A stretch of 64,000 nucleotides of DNA, from contig JBNKTL010000002.1 in assembly GCA_050298055.1 (NCBI GenBank), positions 1 through 64,000 of the forward strand, read 5' to 3'. Positions 24,435-28,226 of this stretch are shown here, in pieces. The notes under the pieces were generated by a model. The model saw only the letters and a program-made list of their open reading frames with translations. It ran no database searches and had not been told where the DNA came from. Made by a program: the position numbers and the translations under genes. Source of the stretch: Spirochaetota bacterium. Its GTDB lineage: Bacteria > Spirochaetota > UBA4802 > UBA5550. How positions within the stretch are numbered: the first letter of the stretch is position 1; every line of letters starts with the position of its first letter.

Positions 24435-25352
24435 ATGAACAAAGAGATGATGAATACCAGAGAGGTTGCCGAGTTTCTGGGTATCCATGAAAAACAGGTC
24501 TATGCGCTGATCAAGGCAAAAAAGATACCCTGTACACGGGTCACCGGCAAATGGATCTTTCCCCGCGAGTTAATTTCACAGTGGGTTATTGACAGTGCCC
24601 GGCTTGAAACAAAGAGCGCAGCCGGAGAAAGACGGGAAGGAGAGAGCTCGCTCATGGCAGCGGGGAGTAATGACCCCATACTGGATGTTCTTTTGAGCAG
24701 GCTCACATACCAGAACCCGGCATCACATATTTTTTCAAGCAGTACCGGCAGCGTGTCGGGATTGAGGCTTCTGAGTGAAGGCGTGACGGACATTGCATGG
24801 TGCCACCTGGGAGATCCCAAAACCGGTGATTATAACACGGAATATATATGTTCATTTTTTCCGGAATCGGCAATAAGCATTGTTCATCTCTTTCAGAGGA
24901 AACTGGGCCTTCTCCTGTCAGAGAGGTACAGTGGAAAAATAAAAAATATTGAAGACATTGCGGGAAGCGGTGTGAAAATTATCAACAGGCAGGAGGGATC
25001 GGGTACCCGAAAATACCTGGACCACCTGCTGGAAGAGAAAGGAATAGACAGTCTTTATATTGAAGGCTATGATAACGAGGTAAACACTCATTTTGAGGTA
25101 GGTCTCTCCATTCTTTCCGGGAGAGCAGATGCCGGAATTGCCAGCATAGCCGTTTCCCGCCTCCTGGGCCTCTCGTTTATCCCCCTCCATAGTGAGAGCT
25201 TTGACATGGTCCTCAGACACTCAACCTTCTTCATGGAAAACATCCAGAAACTCATGGGAATCCTGAAATCGGAGGATTTCAGGGAAAACGTAAAGGCCCT
25301 GGGAAACTATGATTTCAGCGAATCGGGAAAAATCATCTTTGCCAGCGCGTAA
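24435..25352 (+). CDS. Excisionase-type HTH plus periplasmic-binding-like (molybdate/tungstate-type) transcriptional regulator
   Basis: N-terminal TREVAEFL.IHEKQVY.LIK...GKW.FP; GSNDP, GS..GL, INRQEGSGTR. Confidence 0.85.
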   Translation: MNKEMMNTREVAEFLGIHEKQVYALIKAKKIPCTRVTGKWIFPRELISQWVIDSARLETKSAAGERREGESSLMAAGSNDPILDVLLSRLTYQNPASHIFSSSTGSVSGLRLLSEGVTDIAWCHLGDPKTGDYNTEYICSFFPESAISIVHLFQRKLGLLLSERYSGKIKNIEDIAGSGVKIINRQEGSGTRKYLDHLLEEKGIDSLYIEGYDNEVNTHFEVGLSILSGRADAGIASIAVSRLLGLSFIPLHSESFDMVLRHSTFFMENIQKLMGILKSEDFRENVKALGNYDFSESGKIIFASA

Positions 25353-25476
25353 TCTCTGAAGAAGATAATTGAACCGCAAAGTTACTATGTAAAAAAAGTT
25401 AAAAAAAGTCAACCCTCCTTCTGAAATCTATGATAAGATTTCAGAGCTTACAAAACAAAAACAGGAGGATTGACTT

Positions 25477-26550
25477 ATGACAATTATAGTAGGAATCGAT
25501 ATGCATGTAAAGAACTTAGTATGTGAAATAGGGTATGGGAAGAATTTTCCCCATAAGCAGACTTTTTCAAATGATCTTTCAGGTCATACTGCACTATTTT
25601 TCTATATTGAGAAACTTAAGAAAGAACATAACACCGAAGATGTCTTAATTGGCTATGAAGCCAGCGGTCTCGGTTATGTACTGTATGATCGAGCAATTGA
25701 GAGAGGTTACAGGTGCGCGGTATTAGCACCAACTGAACTTTTACGAAGTGCGACAGGATTCAAAAAGAAAACAGATAAAAAGGATGCCAGTTATATTTAT
25801 GAGACTTTACGGGGCTATGTACTTGCCGGAAACAGGCTTTGTAATATCTGGATACCGGATAAGGAATTCAGAGAAGACCGGGATCTGGTAAGGACCTGGT
25901 TTGATGTGAGCGAAAAGATAACCAGGGTAAAAATTCAGATACAGACATTGTTAAAGAAATATGGGTTAAAAAGGCCTGATGATATTGAAAGCTGGACAAA
26001 AGCCTTTATAAACTGGGTAATGGGTGAAAGGAATCAACTTGGAAAGGGTTTCCAGGTCAGCATGGACAGCCTTTTCAGGCAACTGGATTCTCTTAATGCC
26101 GAATGTGAACTGATTGGAAAAGAAGTGCATGAGCTTTCCCGGAAGAAAAGATATAAAGAAATGTGCGATGCTCTTCTTGAAATTAAGGGTGTTGGTCTTA
26201 AAACATCCATGACCTTTATAACTGAAATAGGAGATATGAGAAGATTCCAGAACAGGAGACAGGTTGGGGCCTATATAGGTTTGGTACCCTCGTCCTTTGA
26301 AAGTGGAGAAGCAAGTGATCGAAAAGGAAGAATAACCAGGAATGGTCCTTACAGGTTAAGAAGCATTTTAAACCAGGCATTGTGGGCTCATCTAAGGTAT
26401 AATGGTGAAGAGAAGGAATTTTATGATAAAATAGTTGCCAGAAATCCAAAAAGGAAGAAGAAAGCAATTGTAGCCTGTATGAGAAGAATGGCTATCAGAA
26501 TGTGGCATGTTGCACATGACACTGAAAGTAAATTTTTAAAGGTGGCTTAA
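25477..26550 (+). CDS. IS110-family DEDD recombinase/transposase
   Basis: GIDMH, YEASG and KTDKKDA (DEDD residues); GVG..T, GLVPSSFESG (Ser motif); SD AGGAGG. Confidence 0.95.
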   Translation: MTIIVGIDMHVKNLVCEIGYGKNFPHKQTFSNDLSGHTALFFYIEKLKKEHNTEDVLIGYEASGLGYVLYDRAIERGYRCAVLAPTELLRSATGFKKKTDKKDASYIYETLRGYVLAGNRLCNIWIPDKEFREDRDLVRTWFDVSEKITRVKIQIQTLLKKYGLKRPDDIESWTKAFINWVMGERNQLGKGFQVSMDSLFRQLDSLNAECELIGKEVHELSRKKRYKEMCDALLEIKGVGLKTSMTFITEIGDMRRFQNRRQVGAYIGLVPSSFESGEASDRKGRITRNGPYRLRSILNQALWAHLRYNGEEKEFYDKIVARNPKRKKKAIVACMRRMAIRMWHVAHDTESKFLKVA

Positions 26551-26553
26551 TGT

Positions 26554-26720
26554 CTTTGTAAAGGCGTAAGCAGGCGTAATGTACAGCTGGTTGAGAACGA
26601 TTTGCGAGTGGTTTCACAAACCGGCGCAAAGAGTGTTCCAGCCCTCGGGCAAGTAAAGTGATCTGTTGTTATTACAACACGATCGAATAGCAGAGTGACT
26701 GTACTTACGCCTTTATAAAG
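26554..26720 (+). ncRNA. Putative bridge/seekRNA of the IS110 element
   Basis: 17-bp closing stem CTTTGTAAAGGCGTAAG / CTTACGCCTTTATAAAG enclosing two loops whose segments match the target flank and the circle junction. Confidence 0.8.
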
Positions 26721-26942
26721 AATAATAACTAATATACGGGTTGACATATTTTATACATAGCAGGCGCAAAGGGCGCAAAGTTTAAGATAATGTTAAATTT
26801 TGAGTTATTTAATCAAAAACAATTTCTTCAATTTAACATTCATAATTTAATATTTAACATTAATAAAACTCTTTCTTTGCGGGCTTTGCGCCTTGGCGGT
26901 TCAAAAATCTTCTTCTTTCCCCTGCTTCCCATCCCCCTCATC

Positions 26943-28226
26943 CTATTTATACTTCCCCGGCCATAACCTCTTCAGCCTCTCCCTGATAGCGGCTTCACTC
27001 CCCTCTCCCGACGGTTCATAAAAGACCCTGTCCCTGATTTCATCGGGAAGATAATTCTCATCCACAAAGTGTCCCTCAAAATCGTGGGGATACCTGTAAT
27101 CCTTTCCGTACCCCATCTCTTTCATCAGCCCGGTGGGGGCGTTCCTGATATGAAGGGGAATTTCATAGCTTGTGTTCCCGGCGAGGTCCTTTGCGTCCCT
27201 GATGGCGCGATACGAGGCGTTGCTCTTCGGCGATGATGCGAGGAATGTGGCGCACTGTGAGAGGATGATCTCAGATTCCGGCATCCCGATATTCTGTACG
27301 GCAGTCAGTGTGGAAACCGCGATATTGATTGCCTGGGGTGACGCGTTCCCGATATCCTCGGAAGCAAAGATCACCATCCTCCTGGCGATAAAGAGAGGAT
27401 CTTCACCGGCGAGAACCATCTTTGCCAGGTAGTAGACCGCCCCGTTGGGGTCAGAGCCCCTGAGGGATTTTATAAACGCGGATATTGTATCGTAATGCCT
27501 GTCCCCGGCCCGGTCGTAGGAGAGCGTACTGTTCTTTAACGCTTCTCCCAGGACACTGTCTGTTATCCTTCCGTCACCGGACAGGTTAAACGCAACCTCA
27601 AGTATGTTAAGCATCCTTCGCGCGTCCCCACCTGAGAGGGAGGCAAGTTTCTCCTTCACGCCCTCTTCCAGAGAGATGTTTCCGCTCTTGAGGACCTCAT
27701 CCTTCTCTACCGCCCTTTCCATGATCTTTATAAGATCTTCTTCGGAAAACCTGTTTAACCGGATCACCCTGGTCCGTGAGAGGAGCGGTGAAATAACACT
27801 GAAAGAGGGATTCTCCGTTGTTGCACCGATGAGAATAATATCCCCCGATTCAACCGCGCCCAGGACAGCGTCCTGCTGGGCCTTGTTGAACCTGTGTATC
27901 TCATCAAGGAAGAGAAGCGTCTGCCTGTTGTAAAGCCTGTTCTCCTTTCCCTTCTCAATAATTTTCCGCACATCGGAAACACCTGCGGATATTGCACTGA
28001 GAAAGTATGAATCAAGGGCAAGTAAATCTGCTATCAGACGGGCAAGTGTCGTTTTACCGGTCCCGGGATCACCCCAGAGTATGAGAGAGAATATTTTGCC
28101 GGTCCTGATGGTGGAATCCAGTATTCGTCCGGGGGAGAGGAGGTGCTCCTGTCCTATGAAATCTTTTAAGGTTTCAGGTCTGCACCTCTCGGCAAGAGGT
28201 TCCAGTTTGCTGTTATTATCCTGCAT
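26943..28226 (-). CDS. rarA: Replication-associated recombination protein A (MgsA)
   Basis: PLAE..RP, GDPGTGKTT, DEIHRFNKAQQD, GATTENPSF, SAFIKSLRGSD. Confidence 0.95.
   Translation of the reverse strand: MQDNNSKLEPLAERCRPETLKDFIGQEHLLSPGRILDSTIRTGKIFSLILWGDPGTGKTTLARLIADLLALDSYFLSAISAGVSDVRKIIEKGKENRLYNRQTLLFLDEIHRFNKAQQDAVLGAVESGDIILIGATTENPSFSVISPLLSRTRVIRLNRFSEEDLIKIMERAVEKDEVLKSGNISLEEGVKEKLASLSGGDARRMLNILEVAFNLSGDGRITDSVLGEALKNSTLSYDRAGDRHYDTISAFIKSLRGSDPNGAVYYLAKMVLAGEDPLFIARRMVIFASEDIGNASPQAINIAVSTLTAVQNIGMPESEIILSQCATFLASSPKSNASYRAIRDAKDLAGNTSYEIPLHIRNAPTGLMKEMGYGKDYRYPHDFEGHFVDENYLPDEIRDRVFYEPSGEGSEAAIRERLKRLWPGKYK

Follow-up and report, generated by a model that had tools for sequence, protein, structure and literature searches.

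A 1382-bp insertion sequence splits one arm of a multi-copy palindromic repeat in the 64,000-nt stretch of DNA analysed here (the window, on contig C2). We put the probability at about 0.9 that it is an intact, recently active IS110-family element of the IS1111 group, guided into this repeat by an RNA. This reading draws on the anatomy of the element, on identical junctions at its copies, on empty sites together with an empty allele, and on guides that change along with the flanks from one related element to another.

Anatomy of the element and its predicted guide RNA

The element and its protein-coding and terminal features are as follows (positions are those of the window).

25382–26763, + strand: IS1111-type insertion sequence, 1382 bp, starting TTACTATG and ending ACATAGCAG at 26763
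25385–25396, + strand: left subterminal inverted repeat CTATGTAAAAAA, pairing with 26749–26760 (12 nt, 92%); both lie 3 nt inside the respective end
25400–25415 with 26738–26753: second inverted-repeat pair of the element, from a repeat search
25406–25476, + strand: leader hairpin (25406–25419 with 25463–25476; 14 nt, 93%)
25477–26550, + strand: transposase/recombinase gene, 357 aa, with DEDD_Tnp_IS110 and Transposase_20 domains and a GLVPSSFESG motif
26741–26746, + strand: TTGACA in the right end, a candidate −35 element
26762–26763, + strand: second copy of the AG core; the boundaries of the element could equally be drawn 1 or 2 bases leftward

The transposase matches Pfam families PF01548 (DEDD_Tnp_IS110; 46.8 bits, cut-off 29) and PF02371 (Transposase_20; 78.5 bits, cut-off 21.3), as well as the NCBIfam model NF033542, ‘IS110 family RNA-guided transposase’ (211.2 bits, cut-off 140). 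Residues D8, E61, D100 and D103, which we take to be the catalytic DEDD residues, are invariant among 44 homologues. The GLVPSSFESG in the translation fits the GL-P----S(t)G motif given for the C-terminal domain of the IS1111 group (PMC11187229). The arrangement of the non-coding regions, 213 nt (26551–26763) 3′ of the gene against 95 nt (25382–25476) 5′ of it, is the IS1111 layout, and the subterminal inverted repeats agree with those of the group (7–17 bp plus short terminal extensions).

Pairing within the leader hairpin would involve AGGAGG, the transposase gene’s ribosome-binding site. If the two ends of the element were joined, TTGACA from the right and TACTAT from the left would make a candidate promoter with an 18-nt spacer. 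A contig of the relative L014 carries a natural right end–AG–left end junction with the promoter-like TTGACG-17-TACCAT across the joint; for the element itself, the corresponding circle junction had 0 matches in this assembly.

Downstream of the gene, the following RNA features are predicted.

26553–26721, + strand: predicted seekRNA/bridge RNA (fold z = −4.25)
26572–26712, + strand: conserved RNA core, consisting of closing stem, target loop, hairpin, donor loop and hairpin
26601–26606, + strand: target guide ‘T’, UUUGCG, the complement of CGCAAA (26765–26770) at +2 to +7 on the right flank’s top strand
26625–26631, + strand: target guide ‘B’, CGCAAAG, with the same sequence as the 7 nt that end the left flank (25375–25381), AG core included
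26652–26656, + strand: donor guide AGUAA, complementary to the left end of the element, TTACT (25382–25386), at a position conserved in relatives
26687–26693, + strand: donor guide AUAGCAG, with the same sequence as the 7 nt that close the element’s right end (26757–26763), core included

A consensus built from 11 relatives contains 44 base pairs, 12 of them with compensatory changes, and CGAATAG[C/G]AG is found in all 11 aligned relatives. A scan of 25000–27300 against Rfam (E ≤ 1) returned two chance-level matches and no bridge-RNA family, so the RNA is identified by its architecture and covariation only.

The first-pass annotation had proposed that an RNA guide spells the target, and this part of its reading is supported, in that the guide covaries with the flank in 25 related elements. 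Its extent has been revised: GGCGCAAAG lies at 26623–26631 in the 3′ non-coding region, but homology with the relatives marks its first two Gs as a conserved linker, leaving the 7-nt CGCAAAG, which matches the left flank. The second guide, UUUGCG, comes in addition to the one proposed and reads the right flank. It starts one base from the core, whereas the donor guide adjoins the core directly. The T and B guides are mutually complementary, as follows from a target that repeats one word in tandem.

The target repeat and its occupied and empty sites

The insertion site lies between two convergent genes.

24435–25352, + strand: upstream flanking gene with HTH_17 and PBP_like domains, its stop 17 nt ahead of the repeat arm
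25358–25381, + strand: left part of the split repeat arm, a purine-rich outer part plus TTGAACCGCAAAG (25369–25381), whose final AG (25380–25381) is one copy of the core
26764–26780, + strand: remainder of the split arm, GCGCAAAGGGCGCAAAG, comprising words 2 and 3 (GCGCAAAG GGCGCAAAG)
26781–26874, no strand: AT-rich repeat centre, common to other copies, with a nested palindrome (26788–26808 with 26842–26862; 21 nt, 86%)
26875–26915, − strand: uninterrupted partner arm, reverse complement TTGAACCGCCAAGGCGCAAAGCCCGCAAAG plus an outer purine-rich part
26943–28226, − strand: downstream flanking gene, a RarA/MgsA AAA+ ATPase

Among the nearest genomes compared, all from other genera, these two flanking genes lie on separate contigs.

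The partner arm had been placed at 26874–26903. It is the near-perfect inverse that was described (3 of 30 positions differ from the reconstructed 30-mer), but its span is 26875–26904, one base further on. Split inverted repeats at 25358–25381/26892–26915 (24 nt, 88%) and 26762–26780/26875–26893 (19 nt, 89%) show that the palindrome reaches about 11 nt further outward than had been thought. The corresponding CCGCCAAG of the partner arm does not match the B guide.

Searching the genome with the 30-mer at up to 8 substitutions gave 76 matches, 5 of which were dropped as artefacts of the element’s right end or as register duplicates, leaving 71 arms; five shuffled 30-mers gave 0 genome matches at up to 7 substitutions, which puts the match far above the chance level. 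The arms, which include 22 complete inverted pairs, belong to short, imperfect, extragenic, multi-copy palindromes. The repeat unit is about 150 bp, each arm consists of three tandem 8–9-nt words after TTGAACC, and an AT-rich palindrome is nested inside. Open reading frames of at least 150 aa cover 82% of the genome, and 65 of the 71 arms fall outside them; the family is thus largely intergenic, as had been suggested, and may act as the safe harbour that the same suggestion made of it.

REPs associate with a REP-associated tyrosine transposase (RAYT, Y1_Tnp) that is flanked by its own REPs. The genome contains seven PF01797 (Y1) genes, none within 14 kb of an arm, and four of the seven are on contigs devoid of arms. 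The target is a tandem-word hairpin, neither a REP with a RAYT gene nor attC, and so is indeed a different repeat from those known for IS621 and IS1111 elements. It shares inverted arms with MITEs; the flanks of the 22 complete copies continue as purine-rich words and have no evident duplication, and no parent autonomous element was found. Of 301 genomes from the phylum, 33 contain hairpins of this tandem-word (‘stutter’) class; the exact CGCAAAG-arm pattern had 0 matches in 60 other genomes of the family. We rejected the idea that the repeat is lineage-specific, which is true at the family level only: the wider search of the phylum turned up hairpins of this class outside the family, and CGCAAAG words there as well. 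Stuttered words also flank both PF05635 (23S-rRNA-IVS-protein) genes in this genome, but the words differ from those of the target, and there is no CGCAAAG arm within 1.6 kb of the genes.

In the 4.7-Mb assembly, all five left junctions and all five right junctions read ...TTGAACCGCAAAG|IS|GCGCAAAG..., which bears out the first-pass annotation on the precision of the insertion and on the lack of a target-site duplication, with AG alone present at both ends of the element. The test that the annotation proposed, whether each insertion uses the same AG of the same repeat, thus came out in its favour. The left-end 17-mer and the right-end 15-mer of the element each occur five times in the genome, only at its copies. 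Logan unitig depth was 58 for the element and 11–12 for the flanks, indicating about five copies; the unitig of the element in run X1 contains 0 variant letters, which together with the depth we take as a sign of recency. Only one copy is fully assembled. In a contig of runs X2 and X3, the window’s right flank follows a C76-type left flank with no element in between, so contig C2 may pair the wrong left and right flanks across it. Complementarity of the outer flanks (9/14 for C2-left with C2-right, 4/14 for C76-left with C2-right) is not decisive for the pairing. Since the site is identical at all copies, such mispairing would leave its identity untouched.

In a sister sample, a contig of run X2 passes from 25379 straight to 26762 and into an uninterrupted arm, so that 1382 bases (25380–26761, with a 2-base AG ambiguity) are absent. 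This contig is the empty allele of the window’s left flank, and like the other empty copies it agrees with the site as reconstructed by removing the element. The exact reconstructed 30-mer also occurs uninterrupted at C48:20178–20207 and C64:2215–2244. Across the genome there are 17 empty and 5 occupied CGCAAAG-N-CGCAAA sites, which suit both guides and are all in repeat arms, where 0.12 would be expected by chance. Occupancy was restricted to the 1-nt spacing: 5 of 22 such sites are occupied vs. 0 of 41 with the 2-nt spacing found between words 2 and 3 (Fisher p = 0.0037). An apparent preference for G between the two words (5/15 occupied vs. 0/7) was not significant (p = 0.13).

Guide–flank covariation and alternative explanations

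A search of genome contigs for related loci with the single protein found none; a search with a transposase alignment then gave 8 + 28 related loci. In 22 of 25 loci, over 13 different words, B guide and left flank are identical, and none of 20000 permutations did as well; the remaining three loci (L001, L003/L021 and L024) have 1–2 mismatches. Among the eight loci with a right flank, the T guide matches +2 to +7 at 6/6 positions in five and at 5/6 in one, and in L012 and L017 the fit is shifted from this register by one base, to one side or the other. RNAalifold pairs the two target guides with each other in 9–10 of 11 sequences, and part of the covariation could therefore stem from an RNA helix between them. 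L012, whose guides are not complementary to one another yet fit its flanks, argues against such a helix as the whole cause. Insertion is between two tandem words in 13 of 20 relatives, and at other kinds of site in at least 7 of 20.

The site lies within the 41-nt arm of a palindrome, and the recombinase might recognise the target hairpin, as a stem-loop or cruciform, instead of base pairing with the site or as an obligatory second key. For ISPpu10, a recent report describes a target-encoded stem-loop as an added specificity determinant (bioRxiv 10.64898/2026.03.19.712850), and the exclusive use of the word 1–word 2 junction would fit such a scheme. That junction, however, is already accounted for by the 1-nt spacing that two guides need. 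The guides covary with flanks over 13 words, the right flank of the C43 copy has no partner arm within 160 nt, and the seven or more relatives at sites other than tandem words also speak against hairpin recognition, which we consider unlikely. Less probable by a good margin is that the element landed once and then spread between the ~150-bp repeats by homologous recombination or gene conversion. The flanks are repeats with 75–85% identity over ~150 bp, and one contig suggests another pairing of flanks in the sister samples, but the common left flank runs for just 13 nt before divergence, which leaves too little homology there for efficient exchange. On the right, the flanks come from different repeat sub-types (C43 and C61 vs. 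the window), and the element has all the parts of an active RNA-guided insertion sequence, with guides that fit the site. Finally, the same sequence beside every copy could mean that the flanks belong to the mobile unit (element plus arm), or that the hairpins are deletion derivatives of the element (MITEs), a view made barely credible by the 71 arms vs. only 5 copies, the absence of the element’s end sequence from the arms, the existence of an empty allele, the repeat-rich genomes G340, G250 and G277 (81, 37 and 17 arms) with no match to this transposase at E ≤ 1e-10, and the genomes G104 and G269, whose matches to it are only 23–26% identical.

Proposed mechanism and comparison with known systems

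For RNA-guided insertion, our preferred reading, we propose that the DEDD recombinase is loaded with a ~140–170-nt RNA encoded directly downstream of its gene. One loop of this RNA would hold both target guides: CGCAAAG, in the sense of the left half and ending in AG, would pair with the bottom strand, and UUUGCG would do so with the top strand, across +2 to +7 of the right half. The second loop would guide the element’s own ends, AUAGCAG the right and AGUAA the left. A circular form (right end–AG–left end) could then recombine at the AG that it shares with the target, CCGCAA-AG-G-CGCAAA, giving insertion without duplication in a fixed orientation, the transposase reading toward the hairpin centre. 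The production of the RNA, its binding by the protein and the chemistry are carried over from IS621, ISEc11 and ISKpn4 and are presumed to be alike here. The 13 bases specified by the guides occur in the genome only at the word 1/word 2 junction of one arm type, and therefore every copy lands there.

RNA-guided insertion into an intergenic repeat is already known as a mechanism (IS621, ISPpu9/10, ISPa11) and is unchanged by our finding, which adds a new element and a new target repeat as examples. Here a single draft genome shows the guide RNA alongside the occupied sites, the 17 empty ones and an empty allele at population level, and the relatives form a natural retargeting series over 13 target words. 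Their clade can therefore readily supply natural guide/target pairs for the study of IS1111-type recombinases, for which the rules are less well established than for IS621. Tandem-word hairpin repeats, which have been little studied, gain a first interaction partner as landing pads for an RNA-guided insertion sequence. This role accounts for some of the assembly breaks in such genomes, and rearrangements between copies of the element may be driven by it.

More tentatively, and with the odds somewhat against it, the element may belong to a clade of IS1111-type elements (transposases 39–88% identical, from metagenomes of several phyla) specialised on the under-described class of stutter hairpins with a TT(G/A)AACC- or CTCACC-like lead and 7–9-nt words, inserting between words 1 and 2 with mutually complementary target guides, words and guides co-evolving. 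Because both target halves are the same word, the two guides are complementary and able to zip the target loop shut. If such a clade exists, this self-pairing could be a built-in brake, a single-base change of the word copied in both guides would move the element to a new repeat family, and element and repeat vocabulary would evolve together. The widespread A-versus-C/T asymmetry of the arms could likewise offer, or deny, just one landing site per hairpin.

Other IS1111-type elements insert in one inverted-repeat arm of another genetic element, in a fixed orientation; their targets are defined mobile elements, whereas the target repeat here has no known mobilising gene. So-called long simple sequence repeats are further tandem-word arrays that resemble the target. 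The literature and databases searched hold no name for this element, and literature searches brought up neither a link between such repeats and insertion by IS110-family elements nor anything relevant on the words themselves.

The closest likeness in anatomy is to IS1111-group elements with a right-end seekRNA or bridge RNA (ISEc11, ISKpn4 and ISPa11; Siddiquee et al., 2024, PMC11187229; Durrant et al., 2024, PMC11208160). Such elements share the DEDD and PF02371 domains and GL-P----SG, the long downstream non-coding region, subterminal inverted repeats, the lack of a target duplication, and natural retargeting among relatives through changes in the guide segments. The guide order is also the same, IS1111 seekRNAs being reported to carry the top-strand match 5′ of the bottom-strand match (PMC11187229). 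In contrast, the transposase here has 357 aa (the range given for the family is 330–350), the top-strand guide begins one base off the core, the target guides are mutually complementary and there is no Rfam match.

As for targets, the REP-targeting elements IS621 of E. coli, ISPpu9/ISPpu10 of P. putida and ISPa11 likewise use multi-copy intergenic palindromes, with one position and one orientation in the repeat for all copies (Tobes and Pareja, 2006, PMC1525189; PMC12288879; PMC11208160). The target here differs from a classical REP in its tandem-word arms and in having no RAYT-type gene within 14 kb. Considering the target only, it is most like tandem heptamer/octamer arrays such as the heptamer repeats of Xanthomonas and Nostoc (Rehm et al., 2015, PMC4692102), with which it shares arms of stuttered 7–9-nt words in inverted pairs, an intergenic position and words that differ by lineage.

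Insertion site and empty allele

The insertion sequence (IS; 25382-26763) splits one arm of a dispersed hairpin repeat, as the first-pass annotation had proposed. The left junction reads ...TTGAACCGCAAAG followed by TTACTATG..., the right junction ...ACATAGCAG followed by GCGCAAAGGGCGCAAAG..., and the partner arm (26875-26904) differs from the 30-mer reconstructed by removing the IS at 3 of 30 positions. The palindrome is longer than that annotation had it: in a repeat search, 25358-25381 pairs with 26892-26915 and 26762-26780 with 26875-26893. The empty allele, for which it had recommended a search, is present in run X2, a sister sample from the same study, in which 125 nt of unique left flank from the window run on, in a contig of 154 nt, into an uninterrupted arm. 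This contig leaves out 1382 bases, with 2 letters that fit either side, and thus sets the element's length at 1382 bp and its core as AG.

The suggested check of all copies in the genome gave the same site. The source assembly (G000; 4.7 Mb, 199 contigs) contains one full copy and, at contig ends, eight further IS ends, of which four are left and four right; tblastn found no second full transposase gene in it. TTGAACCGCAAAG stands directly before the IS at 5/5 left junctions, which diverge upstream of it, and GCGCAAAG directly after the IS at 5/5 right junctions. In Logan contigs of the probable source run (X1), the IS forms a separate unitig, free of variant letters, at a depth of 58 vs. 11-12 in the flanks, implying about five copies.

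Contigs from X2 and another run, X3, join a left flank of the type on contig C76 (G000:C76:8470-8575), through a variant arm (CCGCAAAG-AT-GCAAAG, in which AT replaces GC), to the right flank in the window up to 26988 without the IS (window 25364-25381, 26766-26988). Two readings fit: a false join across the IS in the window's contig, C2, or an IS-mediated rearrangement, between IS copies, that sets the strains apart. C2's pairing gains slight support from how well the outer flanks complement each other, and the conclusion about the site is independent of which flanks C2 pairs.

Transposase and predicted guide RNA

The element has the following features.

25477-26550, + strand: transposase ORF, 357 aa, Pfam PF01548 + PF02371
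25385-25396 / 26749-26760: subterminal inverted repeats, 12 nt, 92%, 3 nt in from each IS end
26601-26606: T guide UUUGCG, first loop; complementary to right flank +2..+7
26625-26631: B guide CGCAAAG, first loop, after a hairpin and conserved CCG(G/A); identical to the left flank's final 7 nt
26652-26656: donor guide AGUAA, second loop; complementary to nt 1-5 of the IS left end
26687-26693: donor guide AUAGCAG, second loop; identical to the final 7 nt at the IS right end

The two Pfam domains (46.8 and 78.5 bits, respectively) are the IS110-family transposase pair, and the protein scores 211 bits (cut-off 140) with NF033542, which NCBI curates under the name ‘IS110 family RNA-guided transposase’. 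By sequence, the sole solved relatives are the ISCro4 and IS621 transposases, which match the C-terminal half (E ~1e-12). Out to where the repeat resumes, 95 nt of non-coding sequence precede the gene and 213 nt follow it. Siddiquee et al. (PMC11187229) characterise the IS1111 group by subterminal repeats, extended non-coding sequence downstream of the gene and the motif GL-P----SG, and the window IS has all three (motif GLVPSSFESG). Another, distant IS110-family gene (24% identity to the window transposase) lies at G000:C32:46013-46924.

The fold of the 3' non-coding region beats 200/200 shuffles (z = −4.25), and aligning this region with that of 10 relatives gave a consensus of 44 pairs, 12 with compensatory changes. 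In this consensus, a closing stem is followed by a stem to a loop containing a hairpin, and then by a second hairpin between single strands. The 3'-side segments of both loops (CGCAAAG and AUAGCAG) end in AG, followed by AGUG. The target repeats a single word in tandem, which makes the T and B guides mutually complementary; they are paired in the MFE fold and by RNAalifold (9-10 of 11 sequences). The predicted RNA shares the two-loop logic of bridge RNAs (PMC11208160) and the strand order reported for IS1111 seekRNAs (PMC11187229).

Guides and flanks among relatives

Transposase homologues (270 at E ≤ 1e-10) lie mostly on ~1.4-kb contigs. From a 44-sequence alignment we fetched 36 loci, 25 of which have both left flank and homologous guide readable. 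The five variable bases of the B guide were identical to the left flank in 22 of these 25, across 13 words (CGCAAAG, CGCGGAG, CGCAGAG, CACGGAG, CACAGAG, CCACAAG, CGCCAAG, CACCAAG, CTGAAAG, CCGAAAG, CACGAAG, GGGAGAG and CACATAG); AG was required by the left-end regular expression, and constancy of the core across loci is not an independent count. Non-cognate pairs agreed at a mean of 2.6/5, and none of 20000 permutations reached 22 matches. The exceptions have one mismatch each (loci L001 and L024) or two (L003/L021). For the T guide, eight close relatives have a right flank: +2..+7 fits at 6/6 in five and 5/6 in one, while the register shifts to +1..+6 in L012 and +3..+8 in L017. Among relatives with both flanks, 13/20 are inserted between a word and its tandem copy, vs. 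0.5 expected from shuffled flanks, and many left flanks start TTAACC, TGAACC or CTCACC.

In contig L014, flank and IS are followed directly by right end, AG and left end, the order that a circular or tandem form would show; a promoter-like TTGACG-17-TACCAT spans the joint, and a promoter made when the ends meet is proposed as the transcription source by Siddiquee et al. (PMC11187229). In L011 (2674-2741), where the right end breaks off, another right end follows in inverted orientation, from a second copy that has a flank of its own (AACGCAGAGGACGCTGAG). This may be two copies tail to tail in both arms of one hairpin, or an assembly artefact. Run X6, in a sister sample, contains an IS variant (window 25387-26763; ~119 differences over ~1400 nt) whose right flank starts TTCACGAAGG; it is thus a diverged relative from the same habitat, inserted at another word.

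The target repeat and known systems

Searching G000 with the 30-mer (≤8 substitutions) gave 76 places, or 71 arms after dropping five IS right ends or register duplicates; five shuffled 30-mers had no matches there at ≤7 substitutions. The arms form 22 facing pairs (element length 87-313 bp, in most cases 140-170 bp) and 27 solo arms, including partners of IS-interrupted arms. Outside any ORF of at least 150 aa lie 65/71 arms, such ORFs covering 82% of the genome. An arm consists of TT(G/A)AACC and three words, CGC(A/C/T)AAG, N, CGCAAAG, NN, CGCAAAG; word 1 is often unlike between paired arms (one with A, its partner with C or T). A nested palindrome, AT-rich, forms the centre; more purine-rich words flank the arms, and no target duplication was evident. 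None of the seven Y1-transposase genes in G000 is near an arm, so the repeat is REP-like in behaviour rather than a REP with a RAYT.

The exact 30-mer is uninterrupted at two places in G000. The sequence needed by both guides, CGCAAAG-N-CGCAAA, occurs at 17 empty and 5 occupied sites (0.12 expected by chance), all at the junction of words 1 and 2. In contrast, none of 41 junctions of words 2 and 3, which have the same words at 2-nt spacing, is occupied (Fisher p = 0.0037).

An X1 contig joins 26783 to 26875, leaving out the 91-nt AT-rich centre, and is probably another copy with a short centre (cf. C14:15937-16023, centre 27 nt). The left flank of one IS copy (C53:78-160) has layers of GTTACAA x2, GTTTCAA x2 and GTTGAAGA x4 before the TTGAACCGCAAAG arm; thus the repeats form mosaics, somewhat like BIMEs. 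Both PF05635 (23S-rRNA-intervening-sequence-protein) genes of G000 are bracketed by inverted stuttered-word runs built like the IS target but from other words, GTTACAA/GTTTCAA at C35:49950-50650 and TTTTGAA at C64:100-700.

The pattern ACC-(CNCNNAG)-N-(CNCNNAG)-NN-(CNCNNAG) is present in 33/301 sampled genomes of the phylum (up to 81 per genome), vs. 2 matches in total for the reversed control. The exact CGCAAAG arm pattern is absent from 60 other genomes of the family. Neither these 60 (best, 30% identity) nor five repeat-rich genomes yielded a close IS relative, bearing in mind that multi-copy IS are often absent from draft genomes. It is clear that the repeats do occur in the absence of the IS.

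A partial literature search found no paper linking IS110-family elements with tandem-word repeats. Insertion of such elements into intergenic palindromic repeats has long been known (Tobes and Pareja, 2006, PMC1525189), and its RNA-guided basis, including natural retargeting among relatives, since 2024 (PMC11187229). The window IS is an unnamed further case with a well-documented target, and the guide/target pairs of its relatives make up a natural series that is useful. Like IS621, ISPpu9/10 and ISPa11, it targets an intergenic palindromic repeat, but one of a different class.
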